From Candidatus Pacearchaeota archaeon (lineage in GTDB: Archaea; Nanobdellota; Nanobdellia; Pacearchaeales; GW2011-AR1): a DNA stretch of 64,000 nt. Both the position numbers and the translations under genes were made by a program. A model generated the notes under the pieces. It saw nothing but the letters and a program-made list of their open reading frames with translations. It had not been told where the DNA came from and made no database searches. Shown piece by piece: positions 40,889 through 57,261 of this stretch (the first letter of the stretch is position 1; the number at the start of each line of letters is the position of its first letter). The stretch covers positions 302,449 to 366,448 of the forward strand of contig JBAZJQ010000001.1 in NCBI GenBank assembly GCA_041651235.1, written 5' to 3'.

Positions 40889-41194
40889 ATGAAAGTAAAA
40901 AAAATTACAGAGGTTATAGGGAAAAAGGTATTTACAGATACTGGTGACTACTTTGGGGAAGTTGAAGAGTCTAACTTAGTTGAAAATAAGGTTGATGGAT
41001 GGAGAATTAGAATTGCAAGTTCAATGGGCAATTTTTTAGGGGGTGCTAAAGGGGTGATAATTCCACATCAGTTTGTGAAGGCTGTTGGAGATATTGTAAT
41101 TGTAAGCAGAGCTAATCTGCCTTTAGATGAAGGTGAGGAAACAGTTGAGCAAACAGTTGATTTATCTAGTGGAAGCAGTTCCCTTGAGATGTAA
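40889..41194 (+). CDS. PRC-barrel domain protein
   Basis: VIGKKVFTDTGDYFGEVEESNLVENKVDGWRI...VIIPHQFVKAVGDIVIV pattern. Stop overlaps the next start (TAATG). Confidence 0.7.
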   Translation: MKVKKITEVIGKKVFTDTGDYFGEVEESNLVENKVDGWRIRIASSMGNFLGGAKGVIIPHQFVKAVGDIVIVSRANLPLDEGEETVEQTVDLSSGSSSLEM

Positions 41195-41709: not shown

Positions 41710-41727
41710 GAAGATATATAAATAAAT

Positions 41728-41764
41728 CAAACTTTCTTTAACAAAGATAAGTTTGAATAAAGAA
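41728..41764 (+). repeat. hairpin element copy B (core only)
   Basis: CAAACTTTCTTTAACAAAGATAAGTTTGAATAAAGAA. Same stem as the other copies with a different loop; about 34 nt upstream of the 41798 start. Confidence 0.7.
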
Positions 41765-41797
41765 AATTAAATAACTAAAAAAGATAAAATAAAAAAG

Positions 41798-42295
41798 ATG
41801 GCTTACAATTTGGGTGCTTGGAATGTAACAGATATTTTGAATACTTGGGCAGAGGCAGGAGTATTCGCTTATATTATTCCAGGATTAATGATCTTTGCAT
41901 TAGTTTATGGAATTCTAATGAATGCAAAAATTCTTGGAAATAATAAAGGAGTTAATGCGATTGTTGCTCTTTCAGTGGGATTATTATCTTTGCAATTTGA
42001 TTGGGTAGCTAATTTTTTTGCAACTATCTTTCCTTATGCTGGGATGGGAATTGCTGTTTTATTAGTTGCTATGATTTTAATGGGGTTTATTGTTGAAGAC
42101 GAAAAGAAAGCTAAATGGATATTTTTTGGAATAGGAGCTTTAATATTTTTAGTTGTGATTATTTATAGTTTAAGTGATTTTGCTTGGTTTGGGGGTTATT
42201 CAGGGGTGGATTGGGCTCCCTGGATTGTTTTAATATTATTGGTTGCTGCAGGGGTTGTTGCAGTTGTATTGGGTGGAGATAGTAAATCTAAATAG
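41798..42295 (+). CDS. 4-TM membrane protein, paralog 2 of 3
   Basis: ALVYGILMNAKILGNNKGVNAIVALSVGLLSL block. Confidence 0.65.
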   Translation: MAYNLGAWNVTDILNTWAEAGVFAYIIPGLMIFALVYGILMNAKILGNNKGVNAIVALSVGLLSLQFDWVANFFATIFPYAGMGIAVLLVAMILMGFIVEDEKKAKWIFFGIGALIFLVVIIYSLSDFAWFGGYSGVDWAPWIVLILLVAAGVVAVVLGGDSKSK

Positions 42296-42509: not shown

Positions 42510-43016
42510 ATGGCAATTGATGTATCTGGATTAGAATTTTTTATGCCGATATTTAGCTTCTTATTTGTATTTATAATTATTTATGCATTGCTTGCAAGTT
42601 TTAAAGTAATTGGAGATAATAAAGGAGTTAATATCATGATTAGCCTCATTGTAGCGGTTATTTTTATTAGTTTCTCATCTTTAAGATTATATGTTGAAAC
42701 TATTTTACCTTGGTTTGTTGTTTTGTTAGTAATTGTATTTTTAGTTTTGTTTTTAGGAATGTTTGCTAGTAAAGATTGGGCACCTAAAGCAGGATTAGCC
42801 TGGACATTTATTGTGATTTTAGGCATAATTTTTGTTATCGCTGCAATTTATGTTTTTAATCCTGTTTTGCACCCAGATTTAGTTGTTGCAGAAGGAGGAA
42901 ATGGAGAGAGTTTGGGACAACAGGTAATTGACTTTTTTACTTCATCTAAAGTTGCAGGAAGTGTTTTATTAATAATAATTGCTGCAATTGTTACATGGGT
43001 ATTGACTAAGAAGTAA
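42510..43016 (+). CDS. 4-TM membrane protein, paralog 3 of 3
   Basis: IIYALLASFKVIGDNKGVNIMISLIVAVIFI block. Confidence 0.65.
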   Translation: MAIDVSGLEFFMPIFSFLFVFIIIYALLASFKVIGDNKGVNIMISLIVAVIFISFSSLRLYVETILPWFVVLLVIVFLVLFLGMFASKDWAPKAGLAWTFIVILGIIFVIAAIYVFNPVLHPDLVVAEGGNGESLGQQVIDFFTSSKVAGSVLLIIIAAIVTWVLTKK

Positions 43017-43018
43017 TT

Positions 43019-43693
43019 TTATCTTTTTTTAGATTTATGATCTTCTTTTCCAGTTACTTTTTGAAATTCTCTTATTGTATCGGTTAGTGGATTCAAAATT
43101 TTAGAAAAAGAATCCTGAGTTGATTGCATTTCTTTAGAAATATTCTCAATGTTTTCTCCATATTCTCCAACTTTTCTAATAATTGAAATTTGAAGTTCAG
43201 CTAATGTATTTTCTATTTTTTCAAGTCTAGAATTTATTTTATCAATTTCTAACACCACACTATCTTTGAATTTGTTAAATGTAGCTGTTTGTTTTAAGAT
43301 GTTTTGTGTTTTTTCATCAACTATTTGCTGAGCAATTTCATTTATTGTTTCTACATCGCCTCCATAAGAATATTGTTGGTATTCTTGCCCATATCCTTGT
43401 GCTTCTGAATATTGTTCTGCATAAGGAGCAGTTGCGGGCTGGTATTGACTCGGGATTTGATTAGTATCTTGATAATCTTGTTGCATCGACATACTTGGCT
43501 GCATTTGCTGATTCATAGCCTGAGATTCTTGATTTTGAAAGTTTTCTGTTCCAACCATAGATTTAATCTGAGATTGAGATAACGCTTCATTAATTTCTCT
43601 AGGAGAAATACCTTCTCTTTGTAAATTATTAATTATCTGGCTTTCTGTCTGGCCTTGTTGTTTCATTTGCATAACTCTTTCTAATACTGCCAT
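43019..43693 (-). CDS. coiled-coil protein with Q-rich low-complexity centre
   Basis: N-terminal small helical domain (QQGQTESQIINNLQREGISPREINEALSQ), Q/Y/E-rich middle, C-terminal heptads. Confidence 0.6.
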   Translation of the reverse strand: MAVLERVMQMKQQGQTESQIINNLQREGISPREINEALSQSQIKSMVGTENFQNQESQAMNQQMQPSMSMQQDYQDTNQIPSQYQPATAPYAEQYSEAQGYGQEYQQYSYGGDVETINEIAQQIVDEKTQNILKQTATFNKFKDSVVLEIDKINSRLEKIENTLAELQISIIRKVGEYGENIENISKEMQSTQDSFSKILNPLTDTIREFQKVTGKEDHKSKKR

Positions 43694-43709
43694 CTTTTTT
43701 ATTTTAAAA

Positions 43710-44087
43710 TTAAGATTTTTCTCTTTTTATAGTTTTGTTTAATTCTTCTTGAATAATTTCTTTAATATCTGCTATCCTTGCAAATTCAAGTGGTTGGAAC
43801 ATTTTTAGCTGTCTATCTAAAATCTCAACTTCTGATTTTCTAGCTGAATTATTCAGTTCACTAATTACTCTTGCTAAAAGTCTTTTGATTGTTGCAAGAT
43901 CTGATGTTGTCTGCTGAAGCTGTTTTTTAGTTTCAGATTCTAATTTAATTAAATCTTCTTTAGTTGAAATTAAATTTTCTCCAATAAGTAAAATTCTATC
44001 TTTTAGAAGTCTTTGTTTTTCCTCTAATTCATTTAATCTTGTCCCTAAATCATTAAAATCTGCATAAGGGTTTTGTTCATCCACCAT
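43710..44087 (-). CDS. coiled-coil protein
   Basis: 125 aa, almost entirely heptad-like (LNELEEKQRLLKDRILLIGENL...). Confidence 0.55.
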   Translation of the reverse strand: MVDEQNPYADFNDLGTRLNELEEKQRLLKDRILLIGENLISTKEDLIKLESETKKQLQQTTSDLATIKRLLARVISELNNSARKSEVEILDRQLKMFQPLEFARIADIKEIIQEELNKTIKREKS

Positions 44088-44222
44088 TTTACTTATTATT
44101 AAGGATTAATGGGTTTAAAATTGTTTTTGTTTGAGGATACACAAATCTTTATAACATTAAAATATTTATTTTAAATGAGGTAAAAAGAGAATGTTATTCA
44201 AAATAAATGGGGGAAATAACTG

Positions 44223-46508
44223 ATGTTATTCAAGCCAGGAACGCCGGTTTATGCTTATGAAATTGTTAAAGAAGAAGATGCTCAAGTTATGTATGTTAAT
44301 TATTTAGGGGCTCCCTTAGTGCCTAATCTAACTAATGCAGATATTATGTCCAGCACAGTTGATTTATTAATCCAATCCCCCAATGTTTCTAGGATTGTTT
44401 TTGTACAGCAAAGAAATTATTCTTATGGTTCTGAAGAGGTTTTTGTTTTAAAAGAAATCGCAAATCTTTATGTTTATCTTACTAAACAAGAAAATATTCT
44501 CTCCCCTATTAAATTATCTATAATGAATTCTGAATATCTTGGGCAGAGACATAATGATGTTAGTTATCTTTTAATGACTTTAAAGAGAGATCCTATTGCT
44601 TGTTATTATGAATTAAAGAGATTTTTAAAACAAGAAAAATTAAATTTACTTAATACTCCTGAAGAGCTTAAAGTTGATCAGCTAAGTTATATTCGGTTAT
44701 TAGAAAAGTTTTTTTCTTTATTAGGACAATCAAAATTAATAAAGCAAGCTGAAATTTATTTTTCAAATTATTCTTTTGGAGACAGAGAAATTTATAATCA
44801 TGTATTTAGGACAAATATAATTCCTAATTTTACTTTTACTAGATTGGTAAGTAATCTCCCTGAAAACGCAGAGATTGTACAGCAATATGAATTGGGATCT
44901 GATTCAAGTAAATCTCTTGTAACTATTTTGAAAAAAGAAGAAGAAACTAAATATATTTATCATCTAATGCCTCCAGAATATGCCTTAGAAGAAGATAAAC
45001 AGGAATTGCTTAATCTTGCAAGAAATGTTTTAATTGAACATCAACCAAAAGCAGAAGAGTTTACTGATCCTGAAAAAACACGGCAAGTATTTTTTAATGT
45101 AGCAAGAGATTTGTTAAGTGAGCTGTCAGTTAGCAGAAAAGTAAAATTAAGTTATGATGAATTAAATACTTTAGCTAAAATTTTAGTTAGACACACTATT
45201 GGATTTGGATTAGTAGAAATATTATTGCAAGATAAAAATATCCAGGATATTGTATTGAATGCACCTATTTCTTCTAATCCTGTCTTTTTAAGGCATCAGA
45301 ATTTTGATGAATGCATAACTAATATCCTTCCAAGTACTGAAGATGGAGACTCGTGGGCAGCAAAATTTAGAATGATTTCAGGAAGACCCCTCGATGAAGC
45401 GAATCCTATTTTAGATACTGATTTGGGTTTGGGAGATATAAGGGCGAGAGTTGCAGTTATTCAGCAACCACTTTCACCAAAAGGATTAGCTTATGCAATT
45501 AGAAGGCATAGGGAAGAGCCATGGACCCTGCCTCTCTTTATTAAATATAAAATGCTGAATAGTTTTGCAGCAGGCTTAATGAGTTTTTTAATTGATGGAA
45601 GCAGGACTATTTTAATTGCAGGAACAAGAAGTTCAGGTAAAACTTCTTTGTTAGGAAGTTTAATGCTGGAGATTATGCCGAAGTACAGAATAATTTGTAT
45701 CGAGGATACTTTGGAATTACCTGTAGAAGCATTGAGAAAATTACAGTATGATATTTTAAGGATGAAAGTTAGAAGCAGTTTATTAAAAACAACAACTGAA
45801 ATTGGAGCTGATGAAGGTATAAGAACTTCGTTAAGATTAGGAGACTCAAGCTTGATTGTTGGAGAAGTAAGAAGTTTGGAGGCTCAGGCACTTTATGAAG
45901 CAATGAGGGTTGGTGCTTTAGCAAATGTTGTTGCAGGAACAATTCACGGAGCTTCACCATATGCTGTGTTTGACAGAGTTGTTAATGATTTGAAAGTACC
46001 TGTTACTTCATTTAAAGCAACTGACTGCATTATTGTTGCTAATCCAGTTAAAACTCCTGATGGATTAAAATCAATGAAAAGAATTTTGCAGATAAGTGAA
46101 GTAAGAAAACATTGGACAGTAGATCCTGAACAAGAAGGGGGCTTTGTTGATTTATTGAAGTATAATGTTGAAAAAGATGAATTAGAAGCAAGCGAAGAAT
46201 TAATTAATGGGGATTCTGAAATAATAAAATCTATTGCTGGAAGTGTTAAAGGATGGGCTGGTGATTGGGATGCTGTTTATGATAATATTTTATTAAGAGG
46301 AAAAGTGAAGCAGGAAATTGTTGATGTTGCTGAAAAAACAAAGAAACCAGAATTATTAGAATCCCCATTCAATAGTTTGTCTAATAATATGTTTCACCAA
46401 TACTCTAAAGAAATTCAAGAAGAAGTTGGATTGCCTGTAAGTGATAGGGTTTTTCCTTTATGGCAGGATTGGTTAAAAAGACAGGTTCAGGGAAAAAAGA
46501 TATCATAA
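44223..46508 (+). CDS. type II/IV secretion family ATPase (FlaI/PilB/VirB11-like) with long N-terminal extension
   Basis: Walker A AGTRSSGKTS about 465 residues in, IICIEDTLEL, Walker B/Asp box LIVGEVRSLEA, His box AGTIHGAS. Confidence 0.88.
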   Translation: MLFKPGTPVYAYEIVKEEDAQVMYVNYLGAPLVPNLTNADIMSSTVDLLIQSPNVSRIVFVQQRNYSYGSEEVFVLKEIANLYVYLTKQENILSPIKLSIMNSEYLGQRHNDVSYLLMTLKRDPIACYYELKRFLKQEKLNLLNTPEELKVDQLSYIRLLEKFFSLLGQSKLIKQAEIYFSNYSFGDREIYNHVFRTNIIPNFTFTRLVSNLPENAEIVQQYELGSDSSKSLVTILKKEEETKYIYHLMPPEYALEEDKQELLNLARNVLIEHQPKAEEFTDPEKTRQVFFNVARDLLSELSVSRKVKLSYDELNTLAKILVRHTIGFGLVEILLQDKNIQDIVLNAPISSNPVFLRHQNFDECITNILPSTEDGDSWAAKFRMISGRPLDEANPILDTDLGLGDIRARVAVIQQPLSPKGLAYAIRRHREEPWTLPLFIKYKMLNSFAAGLMSFLIDGSRTILIAGTRSSGKTSLLGSLMLEIMPKYRIICIEDTLELPVEALRKLQYDILRMKVRSSLLKTTTEIGADEGIRTSLRLGDSSLIVGEVRSLEAQALYEAMRVGALANVVAGTIHGASPYAVFDRVVNDLKVPVTSFKATDCIIVANPVKTPDGLKSMKRILQISEVRKHWTVDPEQEGGFVDLLKYNVEKDELEASEELINGDSEIIKSIAGSVKGWAGDWDAVYDNILLRGKVKQEIVDVAEKTKKPELLESPFNSLSNNMFHQYSKEIQEEVGLPVSDRVFPLWQDWLKRQVQGKKIS

Positions 46509-46547
46509 ATACATAATGCTTTTAAATTAAAATTTGATATTTAAAAG

Positions 46548-46904
46548 ATGTATATTGGAATTAAAAAAAGAGAAAGAGAGTTTAAAGAGCAGAATTATCG
46601 ATGCAAGCTGCCTCTTTTAGAGATTTATTTGTTTAGAAATCCTCGTATTGCTTCTTCTGATAATGGGATTGCTGTAATTCATTTAGATGATCCTCTTAAG
46701 GATTATAAACAATTTGAATTATTTAATGGAGATTTAATTGAGAGGACTAAGGGAGGATTAGGGGGAATTGGAATTGAAAGAGATTGTCTTTTTGAGATTA
46801 ATGGAAATTTAAAAGAGCTTTCTGAAAAGCATAAGATTCCTATGTTTTGTTTAGAGAAAGTAGCAAATAGCTTTAGAGAGCCGGCAGGCAATGCAAGTAA
46901 TTAA
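46548..46904 (+). CDS. hypothetical soluble protein between ATPase and platform genes
   Basis: 118-aa ORF, no TM, no motif recognised. Confidence 0.45.
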   Translation: MYIGIKKREREFKEQNYRCKLPLLEIYLFRNPRIASSDNGIAVIHLDDPLKDYKQFELFNGDLIERTKGGLGGIGIERDCLFEINGNLKELSEKHKIPMFCLEKVANSFREPAGNASN

Positions 46905-46934
46905 GTTTATTAATTCTATTTCTTAATTTTATAT

Positions 46935-49124
46935 ATGGAAAATAAAGAGGTTAAAGATATTCTTGAAAAGTATTCTAATCAATTAAAAGAGCAAGTAGAA
47001 AATTATGATAATTATAGTCCTTCTGGAGAACAGGTTAGCAGAGAATTCGAGCAATTTAAACAAGATATGATGCCAGAATTATCTAAATTTGAAAGGTGGG
47101 CTGCAAATATTGGAGGAATAATAAAACTTAAGATTGCTACAAAAGATGAAGAGAAAATCCAAAAAGAATTAGATAATGCCCACTTAAATGTTAGTCCCGG
47201 AGAAGTGGTTGGGTTAGCAATTGCTGGTTTTTTAGGATTCTTTTTTCTTGGAATCTTAATAAGTGTTGCTATATGGTTATTTAGTGGGGAAAGTTTGATT
47301 AATGGTTTTCCATTATTATTTTTATTTTTAATGCTAGTTGCTTCATTTTTTATTTTTTATTATTTTTATTCGCAGCCTTCAAGACTTGCAACTAAATGGA
47401 GATTAAAGGCAAGTAGCCAGATGGTTCCTGCAATTCTCTATACTGTAATTTATATGAAACACACAAGTAATTTAGAAAGAGCAATTAGTTTTGTTGCACA
47501 AAATGTCGAAGAACCTTTAAGTTTGGATTTAAGAAAAGTTATATGGGATGTTGAAACAGGGAGATATTCTACAATAAAAGAAAGTTTGGATTCATATCTT
47601 GATTCTTGGAGAGAGCATAGTATGGAATTTGTAGAGAGTTTTCATTTAATTGAATCAAGTTTATATGAGCCTAGTGAAGCAAGAAGAATTCAGATTTTGG
47701 AAAGAGCTTTGAAAGTTATTTTAGATGGAGTTTATGAGAAAATGTTGAAATATACTCATGAAATAAAATCTCCTTTAACTAATATTTATATGTTAGGAAT
47801 TGTTCTTCCAACTTTAGGATTAGCTTTACTGCCTTTAGCTTCTACTTTGTTAAGCGGAGCTATAACTTGGGTGCATGTATTTTTAATATTTAATTTAATA
47901 ATCCCTTTTTTAGTTTTTTATTTAACTAGTCAGATAATGCTGCAAAGGCCAGGAGGTTATGGGGAAACTAGCTTGTTAGAAAGAAATCCTCTTTATTATG
48001 AATATAGTTCCAAGAGTGTTTATTTTACTGCATTTGCAATTTGTTTGCCTTTCTTTTTATTGGGAATACTTCCATTAATTTTTGGATATACTCCTGTTCC
48101 TGCATGGTTAGGCTTACCTAGTGATTTTAATACAAGCACCTTTGCTTTCGGAATTTTTGGAGATAAGGCTTTTGGATTTTTATTAAATGATGCAGGAGAT
48201 ACTGTTGGTCCTTTTGGATTAATTGGATTATTGCTGAGTTTATTAGTTCCATTTTCAGTTGCAATGTTTTTTTCTCTAAGTTTTTCATTTAGAACTAGAA
48301 ATTTAATTAAAGCAAGAAATGATTCAAAGGATTTAGAAAAAGAATTTAACAGCAGTTTGTTTACCTTGGGAAATAGATTGGGTGATGGAACTCCTGCTGA
48401 AATTGCATTTGCAAGAGTTGCTGAGTCAGTTAAAGGACAGAAAACAGAGGATTTCTTTAGAATTGTTAACTCAAATATTCAATCAATGGGTATGAGCATA
48501 GAAAATGCTATTTTTAATCCTACCAGAGGGGCTTTGATTTATTATCCTTCAACCTTAATTGCAACAAGCATGAGAATTTTAGTTGAATCTGTTAAAAAGG
48601 GTTTGAGAGTTGCTGCTGAAAGTTTAATGAGTATTTCTGAATATGTAAGAAATATACAGAAAATAAATGAAAGATTAAGAGATTTACTTGCTGATGTGGT
48701 TTCTGATATGAAGAGTAATATGACTTTTTTAGCTCCTTTGCTAGCGGGAATTGTAGTAGGTTTGTCTGCAATGATTACTGGAATTTTAGGAATGTTAGAA
48801 GGGTTAATGGGAGAGGGAGGGGCTGGAACCTCGATTGCAGGTATAGGGGATATAGGGAGTATAACTACTTTGTTCAATATAAAGACAATGATTCCTCCTT
48901 ATTTTTTGCAAATTGCAATTGGAATTTATCTTGTACAGATTGTATTTATTTTAACAGCAACACTAACTACTGTTGATTCTGGTGAAGATAAATTAAAACA
49001 AACTTACGATATTTCTAAGAATTTAATTAGAGGCACAATTTTATATTTGGTTACAGGATTTATTTCAATTATTGCTCTAAGTGTTTTAGCTTGGTTTGCA
49101 TTAAAAGGATTAGGTGCAGGTTAA
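46935..49124 (+). CDS. polytopic membrane platform protein (FlaJ/TadC/PilC-like)
   Basis: Two soluble helical domains, each followed by TM clusters, matching the two-repeat T2SS-F architecture. Sits immediately downstream of the ATPase. Confidence 0.65.
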   Translation: MENKEVKDILEKYSNQLKEQVENYDNYSPSGEQVSREFEQFKQDMMPELSKFERWAANIGGIIKLKIATKDEEKIQKELDNAHLNVSPGEVVGLAIAGFLGFFFLGILISVAIWLFSGESLINGFPLLFLFLMLVASFFIFYYFYSQPSRLATKWRLKASSQMVPAILYTVIYMKHTSNLERAISFVAQNVEEPLSLDLRKVIWDVETGRYSTIKESLDSYLDSWREHSMEFVESFHLIESSLYEPSEARRIQILERALKVILDGVYEKMLKYTHEIKSPLTNIYMLGIVLPTLGLALLPLASTLLSGAITWVHVFLIFNLIIPFLVFYLTSQIMLQRPGGYGETSLLERNPLYYEYSSKSVYFTAFAICLPFFLLGILPLIFGYTPVPAWLGLPSDFNTSTFAFGIFGDKAFGFLLNDAGDTVGPFGLIGLLLSLLVPFSVAMFFSLSFSFRTRNLIKARNDSKDLEKEFNSSLFTLGNRLGDGTPAEIAFARVAESVKGQKTEDFFRIVNSNIQSMGMSIENAIFNPTRGALIYYPSTLIATSMRILVESVKKGLRVAAESLMSISEYVRNIQKINERLRDLLADVVSDMKSNMTFLAPLLAGIVVGLSAMITGILGMLEGLMGEGGAGTSIAGIGDIGSITTLFNIKTMIPPYFLQIAIGIYLVQIVFILTATLTTVDSGEDKLKQTYDISKNLIRGTILYLVTGFISIIALSVLAWFALKGLGAG

Positions 49125-49162
49125 ATTTATTAAGTCTTTTTTTGTTTTATTAATGCTATAAG

Positions 49163-49597
49163 ATGAGAAATAAAAGAGGTAAACTTTCTTTAGGAAAGAC
49201 AAGTTTAAACAAAGAAAAACTAAATATGAAAAAGGTAAACCAAAATCTGTTTTTATCTGAAGATAAAAAAGGTTTTGAAATGGCTATTAGTACTCTAATC
49301 TTAATGATTATAGGAGTAGTTTTGCTTATCTCTCTAATAACTTTTTTTACAATGGGAAGTGCAGAATTTATTAAAACAATAAAAAGTTATGTCAGTTATT
49401 CAAATGTAGATAATGCTGTTGAATCTTGTAACATTTTAGTTGATACTAATCAGCAAAATACTTATTGCTGTGAGAAAAGAATCGTTAAATATTATGAAGA
49501 GGGAGATAAAAAAGAAGAAAGTTTTAGTTGTTATGATTTAATCCCCTTAAAATTGAGTGATAATTTAAAAGAAATGAGTTGTAATGTTGAGTGCTAA
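49163..49597 (+). CDS. type IV pilin-like protein whose signal-peptide region carries hairpin element copy C
   Basis: ...EDKKG-FEMAISTLILMIIGVVLLISLITFF class III pattern. The element is read through in frame. Alternative start ATG at 49226. Confidence 0.7.
   Translation: MRNKRGKLSLGKTSLNKEKLNMKKVNQNLFLSEDKKGFEMAISTLILMIIGVVLLISLITFFTMGSAEFIKTIKSYVSYSNVDNAVESCNILVDTNQQNTYCCEKRIVKYYEEGDKKEESFSCYDLIPLKLSDNLKEMSCNVEC
49180..49256 (+). mobile_element. hairpin element copy C (inside coding frame)
   Basis: TAAACTTTCTTTAGGAAAGACAAGTTTAAACAAAGAA...AAAGGTAAACCAAAATCTGTTTTTAT. Flanked by an imperfect 13-nt repeat, AAATAAAAGAGGT (49168-49180) and AGATAAAAAAGGT (49261-49273). Confidence 0.7.
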
Positions 49598-49767
49598 TGA
49601 AAATTTTTAAAAAAAGTAAAAAAGGAATGGAAATGGAAGTTTTAGCTTGGTGGATACTTGGGTTAATTGTTTTTGTTGTTATTGTTTTTGGGTATATTAT
49701 CTTAAGTGGAAAGGGAGGAGGAATGATTAGTTATCTTAAGAATTTATTTAGAGGAGGGATAGGATAG
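49597..49767 (+). CDS. 56-aa mini pilin-like protein (not in ORF track)
   Basis: MKIFKKSKKG-MEMEVLAWWILGLIVFVVIVFGY... The ATG overlaps the upstream TAA (TAATG). Confidence 0.55.
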   Translation: MKIFKKSKKGMEMEVLAWWILGLIVFVVIVFGYIILSGKGGGMISYLKNLFRGGIG

Positions 49768-49772
49768 GCACC

Positions 49773-50681
49773 ATGAATAAAAAAGCAGATACAGGGCTTA
49801 CTATGAATAAATTAATTACTTTATTTATAATTGCAATAGTAATTATTGTAGTTGCTATAGGTTCAATAAAATATGGGAAAGATATTTTTGATAAGATTAA
49901 AACCATTTTTCCGGGTTTTAATCAGACTGCGGGGAATAATGAGTTAATTCAACCTGCAACTATTCTAAATATTAAAACGAATGTTTTATTAAATGATGGA
50001 GAGGGAAGATGCATTGTTTATGAAGAGAAAAATCCTTTAATTAAGGATTATGGGATAAGAGAAAATAAATTATGGAGATTTGAAAATGGGAAGTGGATAG
50101 ATATAGACACAACGGCTAATTTAGATGATAATCAAATGACGAAATGCGAAGCTGTTCAAAAGTTAATTGCTGATGAAAAAGAATTAATGCAAGAGATTAA
50201 AGATTATTATTATCAGTTTTATAATGATGTTTGTATTCCTACTTTTAATGATCCAAGCAACTATATTGATTCTGAGATGAATGTTAAATGTGGATTTTTA
50301 AAAGAGCTTTTTGAAGAAAATTTCTTTAGTAGCGCAAGTTTTAAAGATATCGAAAGTATAGATGATGATAACCTTAAAAGTGAAATATATTTTTTAGTTC
50401 AATTGATTATAAAACAAGATGAGAGCTTAAAAAATGAAATTAGTTTTAGTGGAAAATTAAATATTTTAATGCTTCCTGCGGGTAACTTAAATCAGATATT
50501 GTCGAGTACATTAGATGGGAATTATGCAACAAATGGAAAAGAAATTTATACATTATCTGGGGTAAAGTGGATTGAAATTGAACAAGAGGATCACCCCTAT
50601 CTATTTATTGAAGGATGCTCAAAAACAAATAAACAGATCAAAGCAGATTTATTCAATGCATGTTATGTTGATGAGAAATAA
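49773..50681 (+). CDS. type IV pilin-like protein (302 aa)
   Basis: MNKKADTG-LTMNKLITLFIIAIVIIVVAIG class III pattern. Confidence 0.7.
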   Translation: MNKKADTGLTMNKLITLFIIAIVIIVVAIGSIKYGKDIFDKIKTIFPGFNQTAGNNELIQPATILNIKTNVLLNDGEGRCIVYEEKNPLIKDYGIRENKLWRFENGKWIDIDTTANLDDNQMTKCEAVQKLIADEKELMQEIKDYYYQFYNDVCIPTFNDPSNYIDSEMNVKCGFLKELFEENFFSSASFKDIESIDDDNLKSEIYFLVQLIIKQDESLKNEISFSGKLNILMLPAGNLNQILSSTLDGNYATNGKEIYTLSGVKWIEIEQEDHPYLFIEGCSKTNKQIKADLFNACYVDEK

Positions 50682-50823
50682 AATATAAAATGAAAAGATT
50701 AAATAAAAAAGACAAACTTTTTTTAGTAAAGACAAGTTTGAACAAAGAATACCTTTTTAGAAAAAAGGTAAACCAAAATCTTTTTTTATTTAAAATATAA
50801 AATGAAAAGATTAAATAAAAAAG
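50679..50823 (+). mobile_element. hairpin element copy D, flanked by a 33-bp duplication of the host start region
   Basis: TAAAATATAAAATGAAAAGATTAAATAAAAAAG at 50679-50711 and 50791-50823. The intervening 79 bp is the element, with both hairpins intact. Confidence 0.8.
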
Positions 50824-51362
50824 CAGAAGAGGGAACTTTTTTAGGTGTAAAAGTAGTTAATTTAGTTATTGCGGTATTGTGTATAATTATTCTTATTACT
50901 CTAGGAGCTAAATTATTTAAATTATTTTCAGAAGAAGGCAATGTTAAACAAGCAGAAGATATACTTAATTTGATTAACGATAAAATAAGTTATTTAACTG
51001 GAGGGGAGTATACTGAAAATTTTTTATACATGACTATTTTTCCTCCTGAAGATTCTGGCTGGTTTTTAAAAAGTTACCAGGAAAGTTTTTTTCCTGAAAA
51101 AGAATGTGTTGGCAAGTTTAAGAGTTGTTTGTGTATTTGCAACTCTAAAGATTGTATTGGTTTAAAAGCATGCAAGGGAATGGGGAAATATACCTTAGTT
51201 GAGGGGGATTTTAAAGAAGAGATTCTTATAGGAGGACATGTTAACCCCCAACCAGGCTCTGGGGTTTTTACAACTAAAGAAATAATTCAATTATCAACTG
51301 CTCAGCAGGAGTTAACTTTAACTAAATCAGATAATAAAGTTATTATAACCGAGAAAAAATGA
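50802..51362 (+). CDS. type IV pilin-like protein (186 aa)
   Basis: MKRLNKKAEEG-TFLGVKVVNLVIAVLCIIILITLG. Confidence 0.7.
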   Translation: MKRLNKKAEEGTFLGVKVVNLVIAVLCIIILITLGAKLFKLFSEEGNVKQAEDILNLINDKISYLTGGEYTENFLYMTIFPPEDSGWFLKSYQESFFPEKECVGKFKSCLCICNSKDCIGLKACKGMGKYTLVEGDFKEEILIGGHVNPQPGSGVFTTKEIIQLSTAQQELTLTKSDNKVIITEKK

Positions 51363-51469
51363 AGTCAAAAAAAGCACTTGAAGATTTAATGAATATTTTA
51401 TTATGGATTATATTTTTAATAATTGCCATAGGAGGTTTATATTTTTTAATTAATTTTTTAACAAAATGA
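51359..51469 (+). CDS. 36-aa mini membrane/pilin-like protein (not in ORF track)
   Basis: MKSKKA-LEDLMNILLWIIFLIIAIGGLYFLINFLTK. ATGA overlaps at both ends (51359-51362 and 51466-51469). Confidence 0.5.
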   Translation: MKSKKALEDLMNILLWIIFLIIAIGGLYFLINFLTK

Positions 51470-52419
51470 AGAAAAATAAAAAAACAGGTAAGAAAGCAGA
51501 AATGAGTTCAAGGACATTAATAGCTTGGATATTATTAATACTTGCTTTTGGAATTGTATTATTATTTTTTTATATGTTTGATTGGACAGGAGAAGTAGAC
51601 AAACAAGCATGTCATAGCTCTGTTATTTTCAAAGCAACTGTTCCTGAATTAAAGGATCAAAAGGTTGTTGAGCTGCCTTTGCAATGTGAAACTGAAAAAA
51701 TATGTATAACCAGCAATATTATTAGTAAAGGGAACTGCGACAAAGATTATCTTGGAGAAAAATATCAAACAGTAAGAGTTTCTGGAGATTCAAAACAAAT
51801 GAATGACGAAGTAAATAAGATTATTGCAGATAAATTATATGAATGCTGGTGGATGATGGGGCAGGGAAAAGTGAAAATTTATTCAAGATATTCAAAGGAT
51901 TTTGGAGAGGGCAAGGTTTGCAACATCTGCACTAGAATTGCTTTTGATGACAATATTAAATCAGTTTTAAATAATAAAGTAACGGGGAATGTAAACTATT
52001 TCACAAGTCATAATGCTCCTGGAGAAGATGTTACTTATTATCAATATATAACCAATAATCCTGTTAATTATGTTAATGGATATGAAGAAAGTCAGGATTT
52101 TATGAATTTAAGCCAAAAAGCAATTATCTTCGGAGAGATTAGCAGCAGTGTTATTCCCGGGTGGATTGGAGTTAGTTCTGGAACTGCTGTAGGAATTATT
52201 ATTGGAGCACAAATAGGAGCTATTGTTCCACTTCCAGGAACTACTTTAGTTGGGGCAGGTGTTGGAGCAATTGCAGGATACTGGGGAAGTGATAATCTTA
52301 AAGAGGTTATTGAAGGATGGACTGGAGCTGATGCAGTATTTGGAGCTATACAGATTAAAGATTATAATATTGAAACATTAAAATCATTAAATTGTTCTTC
52401 TTTTGAAGGCAAAGTTTAG
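51466..52419 (+). CDS. type IV pilin-like protein (317 aa) with Gly-rich hydrophobic C-terminal segment
   Basis: MKKNKKTGKKA-EMSSRTLIAWILLILAFGIVLLFFY. C-terminal GVSSGTAVGIIIGAQIGAIVPLPGTTLVGAGVGAIAGYWG. Confidence 0.7.
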   Translation: MKKNKKTGKKAEMSSRTLIAWILLILAFGIVLLFFYMFDWTGEVDKQACHSSVIFKATVPELKDQKVVELPLQCETEKICITSNIISKGNCDKDYLGEKYQTVRVSGDSKQMNDEVNKIIADKLYECWWMMGQGKVKIYSRYSKDFGEGKVCNICTRIAFDDNIKSVLNNKVTGNVNYFTSHNAPGEDVTYYQYITNNPVNYVNGYEESQDFMNLSQKAIIFGEISSSVIPGWIGVSSGTAVGIIIGAQIGAIVPLPGTTLVGAGVGAIAGYWGSDNLKEVIEGWTGADAVFGAIQIKDYNIETLKSLNCSSFEGKV

Positions 52420-52453
52420 TTAAATTTATAATGTTTCTAAGGTTATTTAATAC

Positions 52454-52846
52454 ATGAAAAATAAAAAGGGTGAAGAGATTTTAGAGAGCACAGTTATTTT
52501 TATTTTATTAAATCTTATGTTTTTTGCAGCAATATTTTTTGGGGTTGTTTATAGAGTTGAATCTGGAGCAAGTGTTTACGAGCAAATATATGCAAAACAA
52601 ATTGCTCTCACTATTGATCAGGCAAAAACCGGTATGAATATTACATTAAATTTAGATGGGTTAATGAATCTAGCTGATAAAAATAAAATAAGCAGAGCAA
52701 ATGTTGTTAAAATTGATAATGAGAAAAAATTAGTGCAGGTTATAGCTGCAAATGGAGAGGGGTATAGTTATAATTTTTTTACAGATAATGAAATTCTTTG
52801 GAGCTTAAAAGTTAAGGCAATGAAACTGGAGATGAAGGTAAAATGA
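52454..52846 (+). CDS. type IV pilin-like protein (130 aa)
   Basis: MKNKKG-EEILESTVIFILLNLMFFAAIFFG. Confidence 0.65.
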   Translation: MKNKKGEEILESTVIFILLNLMFFAAIFFGVVYRVESGASVYEQIYAKQIALTIDQAKTGMNITLNLDGLMNLADKNKISRANVVKIDNEKKLVQVIAANGEGYSYNFFTDNEILWSLKVKAMKLEMKVK

Positions 52847-53310
52847 GTAAGAAATTTATGTTGAATAAAAAAGCAGGTGAAAAGTACTTATTTGGCTGGA
52901 TGTTTTTAATTTGGGTTTTAATTGCTGTTAGTATTTTTGCAGGAATATTTTTATTCTATTCAGTGAATATTGATGCAAGGCCTGAACAAGCTAGAATACT
53001 AAATCTAAGGTTAATGGACTGCATTAATGATAATTTTGAAAAAGTAGATAATAATTTTGATTTTTTTTCTGAATGTAATTTAAATAAAGAAGTGATTAAT
53101 GGAGAGGGATATTTTTTGAGGATTTCTATTCCTGGAAAAATAAATATGGAATTTGGAAAAAAAGACTTAGAATTGCAATGCCAGTTAGCAGAGGAAGGGA
53201 TTGAAGGAGATTTTCCTGCATGCGATTTAAGAAAACTTTATTATTATTCAGATAAAGAATATGTAATAGAGGTTTTTAGTGCTTCTAGTTACAATGGAGG
53301 AGAATTATGA
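52843..53310 (+). CDS. type IV pilin-like protein (155 aa)
   Basis: MSKKFMLNKKAG-EKYLFGWMFLIWVLIAVSIFAG. ATGA overlap with the upstream gene. Confidence 0.65.
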   Translation: MSKKFMLNKKAGEKYLFGWMFLIWVLIAVSIFAGIFLFYSVNIDARPEQARILNLRLMDCINDNFEKVDNNFDFFSECNLNKEVINGEGYFLRISIPGKINMEFGKKDLELQCQLAEEGIEGDFPACDLRKLYYYSDKEYVIEVFSASSYNGGEL

Positions 53311-53870
53311 TAAACAGAAAAGCGCAACTTGGAGCAACTTTTACTTGGTTTATTGCAACAATAATTGTTATGTTTATTCTTGTTATTTATCTTATTTTAA
53401 TGTCTGGTATTTTTATAGATAAAAATAAGATAAAAATAGGTAAAGAGGAAAATTCAGATAATGCTTATAGCTCCTTTGTTTTGAATTCTATTTTAAATGA
53501 TAAAATTGAATTTAATGGCAATTCTGTTTTATTAAAAGATGCTCTTAATGAGTGGATAATCTCTGAAAATCAAGAGGATTTTCAAGAAGAATTAGAAAAT
53601 CAAATTAAAAGTAAAATAGATAATTTATTGAATTCTGGAGAAGGATATTTATTTTATGTTGCTTATAACGAGAATCCTAATCAAATTTCTGGAAGTTTTA
53701 CTGGAGGAGGATTTGAAATTGATGGAGCAGATTATGGTGATTATTTTTATTTAGTTTCAGATAACTTTGAAAGATACGGAGTTGCAACTGAAGCTGAAGC
53801 TGCATTAACAAAAGCCTCTACAATTTATCTTAATAATAAATTTAAAATAAGGTTGTATATTGGAAAATGA
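53307..53870 (+). CDS. type IV pilin-like protein (187 aa)
   Basis: MINRKAQ-LGATFTWFIATIIVMFILVIYL. ATGA overlap. Confidence 0.65.
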   Translation: MINRKAQLGATFTWFIATIIVMFILVIYLILMSGIFIDKNKIKIGKEENSDNAYSSFVLNSILNDKIEFNGNSVLLKDALNEWIISENQEDFQEELENQIKSKIDNLLNSGEGYLFYVAYNENPNQISGSFTGGGFEIDGADYGDYFYLVSDNFERYGVATEAEAALTKASTIYLNNKFKIRLYIGK

Positions 53871-54229
53871 TAAATAAAAAAGCAATGTCCCTTTCAGTTG
53901 TATTGTTAGTTATTATGACTTTAATTTTAGTTATAATTTCTTTAGTTTATTTTGAAATAAGAGATGAAAAATTAAATCAGCAAATTAAGTTAGGGAATCT
54001 GGATAGAGTTTATGCTAAAGAACAGGAAATTAATTTTTATTTAAATGAAATAATGTCTTCTGATAACTTTCAAAGGGAATTTGTTAAATATCGAGATAAT
54101 TTGGAACCTGCTTTGGATAATGTTAGATATACAATTAATGGAAATGAAGTTGTTTTTGATGTTTTGATCCAAGAATCTAATGATAATATCGAAGTTAATT
54201 ATAATTATCAGAAAATCTTCAAGATTTGA
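53867..54229 (+). CDS. type IV pilin-like protein (120 aa)
   Basis: MINKKA-MSLSVVLLVIMTLILVIISLVYF. ATGA overlap. Confidence 0.65.
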   Translation: MINKKAMSLSVVLLVIMTLILVIISLVYFEIRDEKLNQQIKLGNLDRVYAKEQEINFYLNEIMSSDNFQREFVKYRDNLEPALDNVRYTINGNEVVFDVLIQESNDNIEVNYNYQKIFKI

Positions 54230-54292
54230 AAACATTTATAAAGACAGCAGGTTTATTATTAAAATAATAAACGGATGAAAGATTAGCAAAAG

Positions 54293-54796
54293 ATGGTGAG
54301 GAAAAAAGATAAAAAAGGAGCTGAAATGACTATTGGTACTATTATAGTTATTATTTTAGCTTTAGTTGTTCTTGTTGTAATTATTTATGGATTCACAACT
54401 GGATGGGGGAATTTATGGGGAAAAATTACTGGTTTTGGCGGAGGAAGTTCTAATGTTCAAACAATGGTTCAAGCTTGTCAAATAGCTTGTACAAGTGCAA
54501 GTAATTATGATTACTGCAATTTAGAAAGAAATGTTGTTTTTGGAAAAGAGGATACTAACAACGGAGATTATACTTGTAAGATCCTAGAAACTAAAAATAT
54601 AGGTTTACCGATTTGTAAAAGTGTAACTTGTTCAGGTTCTGTAACAAGTACAACTGAAACTGCTGATGAAACTAAATTTAATACCTGGAAAGCTGGATGT
54701 GTAAGTGCTGGAGGAGAGGCAAAAACTGCTAAAGAGGGAACTTGTGCAAGTAACACCCTGACCTATAATAATCAACTTTATTATTGCTGTAAATAA
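54293..54796 (+). CDS. type IV pilin-like protein (167 aa), Cys-rich; candidate major subunit
   Basis: MVRKKDKKGA-EMTIGTIIVIILALVVLVVIIYG. 10+ Cys in the mature part. Own intergenic spacer upstream. Confidence 0.65.
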   Translation: MVRKKDKKGAEMTIGTIIVIILALVVLVVIIYGFTTGWGNLWGKITGFGGGSSNVQTMVQACQIACTSASNYDYCNLERNVVFGKEDTNNGDYTCKILETKNIGLPICKSVTCSGSVTSTTETADETKFNTWKAGCVSAGGEAKTAKEGTCASNTLTYNNQLYYCCK

Positions 54797-54810
54797 TTGG
54801 GGTATAAAAA

Positions 54811-55794
54811 ATGAAAAAAATATTATTGTTCTTCGCTGGCTTCTTTTTATTAGGAATTCTTCTATTTTGTTTGAGTTTGGTTTCTGCAGAAGATGAGTTA
54901 AACCAAAAGATCGTTTTTGAGTATTATGAGGGAATGAACGATATTTTTAAGTTTAAATGGAATTCAATAAATAATTACCTTGAAGTAAATTCGGATGTAC
55001 GAAGCGGACCTTGGAGATATGCTTTACCTTATACTCATTATCCCACTGTAGATAGCATCTTTATTAATCTCGTTGGATTATATGCTTATGAACGCGAAGA
55101 TATTGTTAAAATGCTGGGGGCAACTAGTTTCAAAGAAGCAATTGAACTTGCTAATTTAATTGCAAAAGAAAGAGGGATAGAGAAACTTTTTGTGTCTATG
55201 GAAGATTTAGACAGCTCAGATATTCGAGATACCCTTTCAATTGGTTTTGATTTTGAAGAGGATAACCCAGAAGATCTAGAAAATAGGTATAATGAAGATA
55301 CTTTTTTTGAGTTTGATAAAACAGAATTAAACCAAAAGATCGTTTTTGAGTATTATGAGGGAATGAACGATATTTTTAAGTTTAAATGGAATTCAATAAA
55401 TAATCATTTAGAAGTTAATGGAAATGTTAATACTTGGTATCAATCTGCTAGTAGCAAGAGAAGAGAAACAGAAAAGAGTTACGATTTTGATTATACTTCC
55501 AACCCCCTGGGCGATAGTAATTTTGCAAATTTGGTGGGCATCTATCCAGAAGAACAAGACGATGTCTTAACCATGCTTCAAGCAAACAGCTTCAAAGAAG
55601 CAATTGAACTTTCTAATATTATCCAAGTTCAAAGAGGACAAGAAAAATTATCTATTGGAATAGTGGAAACAGAAGATAATCCTAATGAGTTCACATTTGA
55701 TGAAGAAGTTTCCACTACGACTAATGATCAATTTGCATTTAATGAAAAAATTGATGAAACCGAATCAAATCAATTTGATTTCGGAGTAGCATAA
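54811..55794 (+). CDS. secreted two-repeat protein (Sec-type signal)
   Basis: Signal LLFCLSLVSAEDE. Two homologous halves, each starting ELNQKIVFEYYEGMNDIFKFKWNSINN.LEVN and containing SFKEAIEL. Confidence 0.7.
   Translation: MKKILLFFAGFFLLGILLFCLSLVSAEDELNQKIVFEYYEGMNDIFKFKWNSINNYLEVNSDVRSGPWRYALPYTHYPTVDSIFINLVGLYAYEREDIVKMLGATSFKEAIELANLIAKERGIEKLFVSMEDLDSSDIRDTLSIGFDFEEDNPEDLENRYNEDTFFEFDKTELNQKIVFEYYEGMNDIFKFKWNSINNHLEVNGNVNTWYQSASSKRRETEKSYDFDYTSNPLGDSNFANLVGIYPEEQDDVLTMLQANSFKEAIELSNIIQVQRGQEKLSIGIVETEDNPNEFTFDEEVSTTTNDQFAFNEKIDETESNQFDFGVA
54898..54975 (+). repeat. 78-bp perfect intragenic direct repeat, copy 1
   Basis: Identical to 55327-55404 (offset 429 bp = 143 codons). Confidence 0.9.
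55327..55404 (+). repeat. 78-bp perfect intragenic direct repeat, copy 2
   Basis: Identical to 54898-54975. Confidence 0.9.
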
Positions 55795-55904
55795 TTTAAA
55801 ATAAATCTTTTTTAATCGCTTCTTTATTAATTTTTAAAATTAGATTTTTTGATTAGTGAAATTTAAAAACTTGGAGTTATTTAAATTGTTAGGGGTTTGT
55901 TTAA

Positions 55905-56033
55905 ATGGCAGAGGATTATTGTTGTTCAGGGAGAAGAAAAACAAAAACAGATAGGAGAGCTAAAGCTAGATATAATCGATATAAAAAAGGCGGGAGCCAG
56001 AGAGTTAAGGAAAAAGATAACTGGAAAAAATAG
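55905..56033 (+). CDS. 42-aa highly basic mini-protein (not in ORF track, speculative)
   Basis: MAEDYCCSGRRKTKTDRRAKARYNRYKKGGSQRVKEKDNWKK. Lies in a 600-bp gap with no listed ORF. Confidence 0.25.
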   Translation: MAEDYCCSGRRKTKTDRRAKARYNRYKKGGSQRVKEKDNWKK

Positions 56034-56212
56034 TTTAATCTTCTAAAACTGAAATTATGTTGGATATTAGAGACATTAAAAGAGCAAATGCACTTACTGA
56101 TAATCCTGTAATATCCAATGCATTTACTTTTATTAATGTTAAAGAAAAATAGATAAAGAGGAGAATATTAATAGCATGAGATAATATTGAAAGTCCCGAT
56201 CATACTTTCATC

Positions 56213-56326
56213 TTAAGATATTAATAGTTTAATTATCTGCCAAATTAAAAGCCCAATTGCTAAAAATCCTAGTATCCAGGTGATTATTTGTGCTATTTTT
56301 AATATTCTTTTTTTATTTTTTTTCAT
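56213..56326 (-). CDS. 37-aa membrane mini-protein, or the 5' fragment of a decayed membrane gene (speculative)
   Basis: MKKNKKRILKIAQIITWILGFLAIGLLIWQIIKLLIS. A further hydrophobic reading frame continues downstream in another frame to about 56043. Confidence 0.25.
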   Translation of the reverse strand: MKKNKKRILKIAQIITWILGFLAIGLLIWQIIKLLIS

Positions 56327-56412
56327 ATTTATTAATAGTTATAGAACTATATAAAATTAGTGTTAAGATATATTTATTAAGGTATTTTGTCATTTATTAA
56401 AAAGGTGATTAA

Positions 56413-57261
56413 ATGATTAGTGAAATTTTTGCTGGTGAGAATGGATTTCTTATAATTTTAGGATTAATCTGGATTATCGGAGCGATTTTACAGGACTTTA
56501 AAAGAAGAGAGGTAGATAATTTATGGAATTTTAGCTTGATATTTATGGCACTTGCTTATAGGGCCTTTGTTAGTATCTCTAATGGGAATTACTGGTTTAT
56601 TATAAATGGTATAATTGGGTTCGGAGTATTTTTTGCATTAAGTAATTTATTTTATTATTCAAGATTATTTGCAGGAGGAGATGCAAAATTATTAATGGCT
56701 TTAGGAGCAATTCTTCCTCTCTCTTACAACTGGATTTCAAATTTAAAAATATTTGTTGCATTTGTCTTATTATTTTTTGCGTTAGGTGCTTTGTATTCTT
56801 TAGTTTATAGTTTTGTTTTAGTTTTTGCAAATTTTAAGAGATTTACTAAAGAGTTTAAGGTTCAATGGAAAAATTATAATAAAATGTTTTTATGGGCAAT
56901 TGGTTTTATGATCCTCTGGATTATTTTTGCTTTTATTCTAGATCAAAAGCCAATTATGATAATTGGATTTGTTGTTTTGTTGTTCCCTGTTTTATTTGTT
57001 TATGCAAAATCAGTTGAAGAAAGCTGCATGGTTAAATTAGTTGATCCTAAAGAAGTAACTATCGGAGATTGGCTGTATAAAGATATTAAAGTTGGAGATA
57101 AGAAAATAAAGAGCAAATGGGAAGGAGTTTCAAAATATAATCTAGAAATAATAAGAAAAGGAAAGAAAAAGATTTTAATCAAGCAAGGAGTTCCTTTTAC
57201 TCCTAGTTTCTTATTTGGTTTTATTGTATTAATTGTTTTAATTTACAAGGGATATTTGTGA
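56413..57261 (+). CDS. A24-family prepilin/preflagellin peptidase (FlaK/PibD/EppA-like)
   Basis: First Asp block ILQDFKRREVDN, second FAGGDAKLLMALGA (GxGD-type). Polytopic. Confidence 0.82.
   Translation: MISEIFAGENGFLIILGLIWIIGAILQDFKRREVDNLWNFSLIFMALAYRAFVSISNGNYWFIINGIIGFGVFFALSNLFYYSRLFAGGDAKLLMALGAILPLSYNWISNLKIFVAFVLLFFALGALYSLVYSFVLVFANFKRFTKEFKVQWKNYNKMFLWAIGFMILWIIFAFILDQKPIMIIGFVVLLFPVLFVYAKSVEESCMVKLVDPKEVTIGDWLYKDIKVGDKKIKSKWEGVSKYNLEIIRKGKKKILIKQGVPFTPSFLFGFIVLIVLIYKGYL

Follow-up and report, generated by a model that had tools for sequence, protein, structure and literature searches.

Loci for type IV filament (T4F) assembly have been described before in DPANN archaea. Makarova, Wolf and Koonin (2019, PMC6393860, Fig. 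2A) pointed out DPANN "dark matter" type IV pili islands, and Hamm et al. (2024, Nat Commun 15:6449, PMC11291902) reported that loci combining coiled-coil protein (CCP), CpaF and TadC genes are conserved across cluster-2 DPANN. The CCPs were likened to viral attachment fibres and a role in host attachment was suggested; some of the locus products were detected by proteomics in Ca. Nanohaloarchaeum antarcticus (PMC11291902). We describe here a locus in Candidatus Pacearchaeota archaeon GCA_041651235.1, a genome assembly of 1.0 Mb in 22 contigs that is 87.75% complete and has a G+C content of 29%. The locus occupies positions 43019-57261 of a stretch of 64,000 nucleotides, henceforth the window, which corresponds to 302449-366448 of contig JBAZJQ010000001.1 (contig C1). 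Judged from its genes, it is a complete, well-preserved locus for type IV pilus-type assembly and belongs to a known DPANN system of lineage-wide occurrence. Its type has already been published in the two studies above, with a hint in PMC4858521, and it is not a new kind of machine. What is new here is the signal-less nature of its coiled-coil pair, the approximate quarter of high-quality relatives in which its platform is the sole recognisable one, a doubly anchored pilin-like protein (p6) and an N-terminal ATPase domain with no structural match.

The locus shares its main features with the published ones. As in the loci of Hamm et al., coiled-coil genes lie beside those for a pilus ATPase and a TadC-type platform, and the lineages are the same (Pacearchaeota, Woesearchaeota, Nanoarchaeota and others); relatives of the proteins in the window carry the labels Pacearchaeota, Woesearchaeota, Nanoarchaeota or Nanoarchaeia. 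A weak Nup88-type match of an orthologue of cc125, one of the two coiled-coil proteins (Table 1), echoes the "nucleoporin-like" annotation that led to the CCPs. By description, cc224 and cc125 presumably belong to the published CCP families. Unlike what the comparison with viral fibres would imply, cc224 and cc125 have neither a signal nor a membrane segment, pointing to a cytoplasmic role. In the figure of Hamm et al., filament genes are shown for one locus only, whereas the locus here carries eleven. As in the islands of Makarova et al., an ATPase gene and a TadC gene are followed by many unannotated small signal-peptide proteins read as diverse pilins. That study gave examples only, to which distribution, orthogroups and accessory partners are added here.

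The 761-aa protein, initially annotated as a secretion ATPase, belongs to the GspE/FlaI superfamily. It matched PF00437 with 49 bits against a cut-off of 24.9, and its closest solved relatives were the Archaeoglobus afGspE structure 2OAP (E 5e-30, residues 215-639), CpaF (E 1e-21) and FlaI (E 5e-15). Its motifs are intact, with Walker A (GTRSSGKT) at 467-474, the Asp box (IEDTLE) at 493, Walker B (LIVGEVR) at 544 and the His box at 573. In NCBIfam the protein scored 125 bits for FlaI and 116 bits for TadA. With the FlaI equivalog (NF058587), for which the cut-off is 550 bits, the three secretion ATPases of this genome scored 125 (this locus), 381 and 286 bits. By these comparisons the ATPase is more like afGspE and CpaF than FlaI, a placement made by model scores and PDB relatives. 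A lineage-specific N-terminal domain (residues 1 to about 215) is followed by a GspE/FlaI-type N-domain and then by the catalytic C-domain. These N-terminal residues are conserved among the orthologues, and the AlphaFold2 (AF2) model of residues 1-235 (pLDDT 89) has the form of an alpha/beta plus helical-bundle module, for which a fold search of the PDB found no match (best E 0.33). Lineage-specific N-domains have been viewed as marks of T4F subsystems (PMC13705601), a view that the module fits.

Separately, the orthologous ATPase in a Woesearchaeota metagenome-assembled genome (MAG), CAYWQI010000058.1 (locus L041:169-4536), is a single open reading frame (ORF) of 1456 aa with about 700 residues inserted exactly within Walker A (GTRSSGK/CVEGN ... 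IIAHN/TSLLGS, with slashes at the borders of the insert). The insert starts with Cys, ends in HN and is followed by Thr at +1, which are hallmarks of an intein.

The 729-aa protein has no direct match in Pfam or NCBIfam, and the profile of its family found none among PDB sequences. Regardless, we read it from sequence comparison as a fused and strongly diverged platform of the TadB/TadC or ArlJ type with a double T2SSF domain, because 12 of 36 diverse members of the family matched PF00482 (T2SSF), both halves aligned with canonical platforms and a protein search of the whole genome with this platform retrieved the canonical platform gene at E 1.4e-8. In hhalign, the N-terminal half aligned with the canonical platform gene of the genome at 93% probability (E 3e-7) and the C-terminal half, the weaker of the two, with the second canonical platform gene at 56% probability (E 1e-4). 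The initial annotation had called it a two-repeat platform protein. The genome also has two canonical pilus loci with split platforms and with ATPases and pilins of their own.

The fused platform is present almost throughout the lineage. Its family comprised 2938 word-sharing relatives, or 1069 representatives at 50% clustering, nearly all of them named "hypothetical". Of 41 close relatives, 39 have it, at identities of 52-72% within the order, and it occurs in 299 of the 301 genomes, from 222 of the 224 genera, that were sampled across the phylum. Pfam T2SSF was over its cut-off in only 43 of 61 high-quality genomes and in none of the other 18. Fourteen of the 61, mainly in families f12, f13, f14 and f20, showed no T2SSF match at E <= 0.001; the sample set carries the fused platform. 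Since T2SSF was detectable in 43 of the 61 only, the fused platform is the only recognisable one in about a quarter of the high-quality relatives. Domain-based surveys would score the T2SSF-negative relatives as being without a type IV platform.

The same order of genes, with four-transmembrane (4-TM) paralogues, cc224 (-), cc125 (-), ATPase and platform, was found among 20 fetched loci and in 8 of 16 named MAG loci, and the sequence from coiled-coil pair to platform is shared between families. The coiled-coil genes adjoined those for the ATPase and platform in 16 of the 20 relatives and in 8 named MAG loci, the 4-TM proteins (orthogroup c0) lay upstream of this module in most of the 20 and in the named MAG loci, and the pilin run came directly after the platform in about 11 of the 20. 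The initial annotation had described two divergent coiled-coil genes. Both exist. They share the minus strand and thus point away from the operon, not from one another. In cc224, a Q/P-rich linker joins a small helical domain at the N-terminus to a conserved, coiled-coil-like domain at the C-terminus, and the maximum Kyte-Doolittle hydropathy of the protein over 19 residues is 0.24. No segment with a mean hydropathy >0.9 occurs in any of 31 orthologues of cc224 and cc125, and as the pair has no hydrophobic segment it is most simply considered cytoplasmic. Members of the cc224 orthogroup (n=16) are always beside cc125 and the ATPase, and the position of the cc125 orthogroup (n=15) is likewise conserved. 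The 280 relatives of cc224 are all named "hypothetical" save for a few automatic JGI names, and the best 120 matches of its profile were exclusively Woese-, Pace- and Nanoarchaeia proteins. Pfam searches with ten coiled-coil orthologues gave sub-threshold coiled-coil noise only; the weak matches of cc125 orthologues, all below threshold, included Nup88 and, in two orthologues, FlaC_arch. We favor the idea that the pair may act as a scaffold or regulator on the motor side, similar to the coiled-coil component of pilus subclade 4F.

Every gene that the initial annotation listed between 43019 and 57261 was recovered (Table 1), including a run of about 11 genes with class III-like signal peptides. 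In all 11, K or R is found at -2 and G or A at -1, and a hydrophobic helix of at least 16 residues begins 0-9 residues further on. These N-termini were scored by a crude rule-based scan, and their cleavage is predicted. The rule finds 72 class III-like N-termini in the 1.0-Mb genome, with 10 consecutive ones at the locus (chance about 1e-9); the eleventh leader is accepted if one charged residue is allowed in the helix. The archaeal class III rule, with a charged residue at -2 and a small one at -1 before the H-domain (PMC4371748), holds for the leaders of all 11 genes. Six of the junctions between pilin-like genes are translationally coupled, and the ATGA and TAATG junctions noted at first were counted as five and one, respectively. 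The number of subunits had been called unusually high, which is true in comparison with Epd, Aap and Ups loci but not with the same locus type in relatives, where 8-11 is the norm. Searches of Pfam and NCBIfam with the platform, u118, pilin-like and Sec proteins gave nothing usable, the glycine zipper of p6 (PF13488) being equal to its cut-off of 25 bits. Eight orthogroups of pilin-like proteins recur in relatives whose pilin run adjoins the motor: c2 (p1 and p11), c16 (p2), c10 (p4), c7 (p6) and the block c12, c15/c23, c27/c17 and c8 (p7-p10).

The c2 family is a candidate for the major pilin, as its conserved helix and variable tail form the pattern of such a protein. Its start is nearly invariant (KKG↓AEMTIGTIIVIILALVVLVV, with the arrow at the presumed cleavage site), its four-Cys core is conserved and its Cys-rich tail is variable. 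In p11, the leader and helix (KKG↓AEMTIGTIIVIILALVVL) are followed by a conserved Cys-rich core and a variable C-terminus; the N-terminal 110 residues or so are 55-75% identical in 137 relatives, with a nearly invariant helix. The AF2 model of p11 (pLDDT 78) combines an N-terminal helix of 36 residues with a small alpha/beta head. The second copy, p1, has a hairpin element inserted in frame in its leader, and an alternative start at 49226 would give MKKVNQNLFLSEDKKG↓FEMAIS.

The gene order within the block p7-p10 is shared by 10 loci from several families, and the block is poor in Cys, which occurs only in p8 (four residues). Filaments of type II secretion systems (T2SS), type IVa pili and Com systems are primed by four minor pilins. 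By analogy, p7-p10 are candidates for a minor-pilin initiation or tip complex. As for p6, a second hydrophobic segment is found in 9 of 11 c7 orthologues, and because of this glycine-zipper membrane segment the protein is probably a membrane-anchored base or assembly component rather than a filament subunit. The predicted mature form of p2 is about 46 aa and is helix only, a size similar to that of Flp and EpdE, and 5 further loci, spread over families, encode p2 orthologues of 50-55 aa. Three genomes of the same genus have small ORFs in the slot of p5, and one of these ORFs is 52% identical over 25 aa. No homologue of p3 was found in related loci, where its slot is hypervariable and holds unrelated proteins of 197-458 aa, mostly with class III-like leaders; p3 is a candidate strain-specific adhesin. 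Neither u118 nor sec327 has a homologue in the 36 related loci that lack one for p3, and u118 has none elsewhere in the genome. We regard u118 as probably a passenger, or not a gene. The Sec-type protein with two repeats was seen as first annotated, with 327 aa, a Sec-type N-terminus and a 96-nt internal repeat of 94% identity; by its distribution it is strain-specific and not a conserved member of the locus.

The A24 peptidase gene follows the run after a gap of 618 bp, about 600 bp having been noted at first. The protein matched PF01478 with 38.5 bits against a cut-off of 26.5 and FlaK_Arch with 46.9 bits, and its aspartate motifs are D28/D35 and GGD90. It is the only match of its kind in the genome, and its gene is syntenic with the locus in several families. 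A start of the form (K/R)RG↓QS(Q/E)IITT(V/I)LIILLVL is nearly identical in proteins encoded at C1:66719, C1:118646, C4:21611, C1:617646 and window 21508-22440. Several of the proteins with this start are large (up to about 830 aa) and others are small. Their shared start suggests that the single A24 peptidase may also process these proteins, as another and separate family of substrates.

A hairpin element of about 94 nt occurs in four copies in the window (49168-49261, 50701-50794, 12497-12590 and 41716-41809), with the first hairpin kept in all of them. As initially annotated, two of the copies, at 49168 and 50701, lie at the 5' ends of two pilin genes.

Table 1. Features of the pilus-type locus and its upstream neighbours (window positions; the arrow marks the presumed cleavage site).
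Feature	Position	Strand	Remarks
PRC-barrel gene	40889-41194	+	PF05239 32 bits; conserved upstream neighbour
Three paralogous polytopic (4-TM) membrane proteins, about 165-171 aa	41194-41709, 41798-42295, 42510-43016	+	orthogroup c0
cc224	43019-43693	-	coiled-coil-like, no hydrophobic segment
cc125	43710-44087	-	second coiled-coil-like partner, divergent from ATPase
Assembly ATPase, 761 aa	44223-46508	+	PF00437
u118, 118-aa orphan ORF	46548-46904	+	slot between ATPase and platform
Platform protein, 729 aa	46935-49124	+	two diverged T2SSF halves, fused
p1, pilin-like, orthogroup c2 (PilA-like, Cys-rich)	49163-49597	+	hairpin element in leader
p2, 56-aa micro-pilin, orthogroup c16	49597-49767	+	TAATG coupling
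p3, 302-aa class III-like protein, 6 Cys	49773-50681	+	leader MNKKA↓DTGL
Hairpin-element copy with duplicated start region, 36-codon upstream ORF (50690-50800)	50690-51362 including p4	+	
p4, 186 aa, 7 Cys, orthogroup c10	50802-51362	+	
p5, 36-aa micro-pilin-like ORF	51359-51469	+	ATGA-coupled at both ends
p6, orthogroup c7	51466-52419	+	class III-like N-terminus, Cys-rich ectodomain, C-terminal glycine-zipper membrane segment
p7-p8-p9-p10 (130, 155, 187, 120 aa)	52454-54229	+	pilin-like, three ATGA overlaps
p11, orthogroup c2	54293-54796	+	class III-like leader; candidate major pilin
sec327, Sec-signal protein with two repeats, 327 aa	54811-55794	+	strain-specific
A24 class III signal peptidase, PibD/FlaK type, 282 aa	56413-57261	+	PF01478

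The gap before the peptidase gene contains a 37-codon ORF (56213-56326, -) with a basic N-terminus and one hydrophobic helix; it has a counterpart of 33 aa in the same-genus genome G015. The junction between ATPase and platform (window 46509-46934; slots L027-L034) is variable. Most families have it tight, but in this genus and its neighbours it is 0.25-2.8 kb long and carries small, unrelated ORFs (u118 here and the c32 family in G015 and G020). Downstream, relatives usually have the genes for the A24 peptidase, a HIT protein, EF-1beta and an RPA-like protein with an OB-fold. In several families this RPA-like OB-fold/Zn-finger gene is on the same strand directly after the last pilin gene; here (58558-59502) it is pushed away from the pilin run by sec327, the peptidase, HIT and EF-1beta.

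Other T4F systems resemble the locus in part. The Epd pilus of Methanococcus maripaludis, T4F system 1 (PMC13705601; PMC4371748), is likewise a long operon with several genes for pilin-like proteins; in both, some pilins are very short and helix-only, an acidic residue stands close to the mature start and a peptidase is encoded in the neighbourhood. However, it has two platform genes and the large peptidase EppA, which needs Gln at +1, whereas here there are one fused platform and a 282-aa peptidase of the FlaK/PibD type, and Q is at +1 in one of the 11 leaders. The two other loci of the genome, with their split platforms, are a better fit to this system. A cytoplasmic coiled-coil protein (arCOG07564 in 4F) is the signature accessory of T4P subclade 4F (Makarova, Koonin and Albers 2016, PMC4858521; Sivabalasarma and Albers 2026), as a protein of this sort is here; unlike in 4F, which has a co-localised CetZ2, CBS-domain or SMC gene and the adhesin arCOG02945, no such domain was seen by Pfam in the locus or its flanks, and the cognate pilins are adjacent. 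The bacterial Tad/Flp pilus is similar in that, after afGspE, CpaF is the closest relative of the ATPase with a solved structure, the platform is of the TadB/C type and some subunits are tiny and helix-only. Unlike in Tad/Flp, there is no Flp G/XXXXEY motif, no secretin and no TadZ, the peptidase is of the archaeal type and the platform is fused.

With the archaellum the locus has in common the ATPase superfamily, a fused platform and subunits predicted to be processed as class III precursors. In the 87.75%-complete genome there was no match to archaellin (PF01917) or ArlF/G, with a control that was positive in 4 archaea, and none to ArlD/E (PF04659). No ArlH gene is next to the motor, the only strong KaiC-like gene being C2:89633-90466 (-; PF06745, 185 bits). 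With the ATPase at 125 bits against the FlaI cut-off of 550, an archaellum was rejected, and the initial assignment to a type IV filament system other than an archaellum holds. The KaiC/ArlH-like gene lies close to a different pilus locus, the second of the canonical ones, whose platform pair and ATPase (C2:93380-96776) are about 3 kb away.

We propose that the locus encodes a type IV pilus-type machine that is likely adhesive. As a whole this explanation is in our view a probable one; we are more confident still in the T4F assembly machine by itself, and for adhesion or host contact as its function the balance tips only slightly in favor. In the proposed mechanism, about ten pilin-like precursors would enter the membrane and be cut after KK(G/A) by the single A24 peptidase of the PibD/FlaK type. 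A hexameric ATPase would dock on the fused double-T2SSF platform, and ATP would be used to lift the hydrophobic N-terminal helices into a growing filament. The c2 protein p11, with p1 as a second copy, would be the probable major subunit, the coupled p7-p10 a probable priming or tip complex, and the large, Cys-rich and fast-evolving p3 and p4 the probable source of binding specificity. With its second membrane anchor, p6 may stay in the membrane as part of the base, and the signal-less coiled-coil pair may work on the cytoplasmic side of the motor as a scaffold or regulator. The likeliest use would be adhesion, by which this archaeon with its reduced genome would hold on to surfaces or to its host cell; an attachment apparatus of a host-dependent archaeon, as in Hamm et al. 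2024, is plausible.

Several observations weigh against this proposal. A polar and often acidic spacer of 3-9 residues separates the presumed cleavage site from the helix, which is unlike classic archaeal class III signals. Because of this spacer, only about two of the 11 leaders would presumably pass the strict FlaFind motif. The model of p11 had no fold match among solved structures, including any solved pilin (best E 3), and as a result the pilin fold of p11 is suggested only by its predicted long N-terminal helix. Copies of the hairpin element have been inserted at the starts of two pilin genes, although both stay readable because their start regions are duplicated. In about 9 of the 20 relatives the motor and the pilin run lie apart; such displaced runs agree with the description of DPANN pilins as "more scattered" (PMC13705601). 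Finally, the near-universal conservation of the motor exceeds what is expected for a simple adhesin system.

This conservation is part of the case for a short pseudopilus machine, similar to T2SS or Com, which would make no long fibre and serve as a periplasm-scale piston for the uptake of DNA or nutrients or for the export of surface proteins. The motor is found near-universally, in single copy, in a lineage unable to make many building blocks, and in about a quarter of the high-quality relatives no platform other than this one can be detected. The set of about ten pilin-like genes, four of them in a conserved coupled block, recalls the minor pseudopilins of T2SS and Com. The RPA-like OB-fold gene comes straight after the pilin run in many relatives, but it is found among housekeeping genes (EF-1beta and HIT) and its position may be plain housekeeping synteny. 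In addition, no ComEC-type channel was found in the genome, by which ComEC-dependent competence was rejected, and the conserved helix and variable head of c2 are typical of a major fibre subunit. We consider a pseudopilus unlikely. A related reading goes further and takes the divergent locus as an essential organelle for host contact or uptake, for example a short piston to open or maintain the cell-cell junction or to import DNA or nutrients, and not as an optional adhesin. It is suggested by the near-universal presence of the motor, the sole detectable platform in about a quarter of relatives, the dedicated coiled-coil pair and the doubly anchored base subunit, and we hold it to be doubtful, on a par with the pseudopilus.

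It is less probable again that the machine is a bindosome-like display platform, which would insert or hold large surface proteins with class III signals at the envelope and build no homopolymeric pilus. About 60 further class III-like N-termini are found outside the locus, including those of 800-1700-aa surface proteins with near-identical RG↓QSQIITT helices; the genome has one peptidase only, and functionalised T4F machines have been proposed to be widespread (PMC13705601). Those surface proteins could instead be served by the two canonical ATPase/platform loci, which have pilins of their own. The ATPase resembles BasE only weakly (63 bits, where the cut-off is 1000), and there is no ABC transporter or binding protein in the locus. 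A divergent rotary organelle similar to the archaellum, with the coiled-coil pair in place of ArlX or ArlC/D/E and with the anchored pilin-like proteins as stators, seems to us highly improbable. Its ATPase is the least FlaI-like of the three paralogues (125 against 381 and 286 bits) and archaellin, ArlD/E and an ArlH beside the motor were not found, despite the cytoplasmic coiled-coil partners next to the motor, the sub-threshold FlaC_arch matches in two orthologues, the anchoring of p6 at both ends and a platform fused as in ArlJ.

An adhesive pilus-type machine thus remains the preferred explanation, and it bears on how these archaea are viewed. DPANN are thought to live attached to hosts and their means of attachment are largely unknown. 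If the locus were the essential organelle considered above, then this divergent system, and not the Pfam-visible pili, would be the type IV machine kept by essentially the whole Pace-, Woese- and Nanoarchaeia radiation. A widely cited groundwater study held that pili separate the Candidate Phyla Radiation (CPR) from DPANN, with type IV pilus components "missing in DPANN genomes" (bioRxiv 10.1101/2020.05.14.094862). In the latest census, DPANN are said to have ordered T4F loci only rarely (PMC13705601). The locus is a complete and ordered counter-example. For the few cultivable DPANN, it gives a defined set of genes: a major pilin candidate, a four-gene minor set, an anchored base subunit and a coiled-coil pair.

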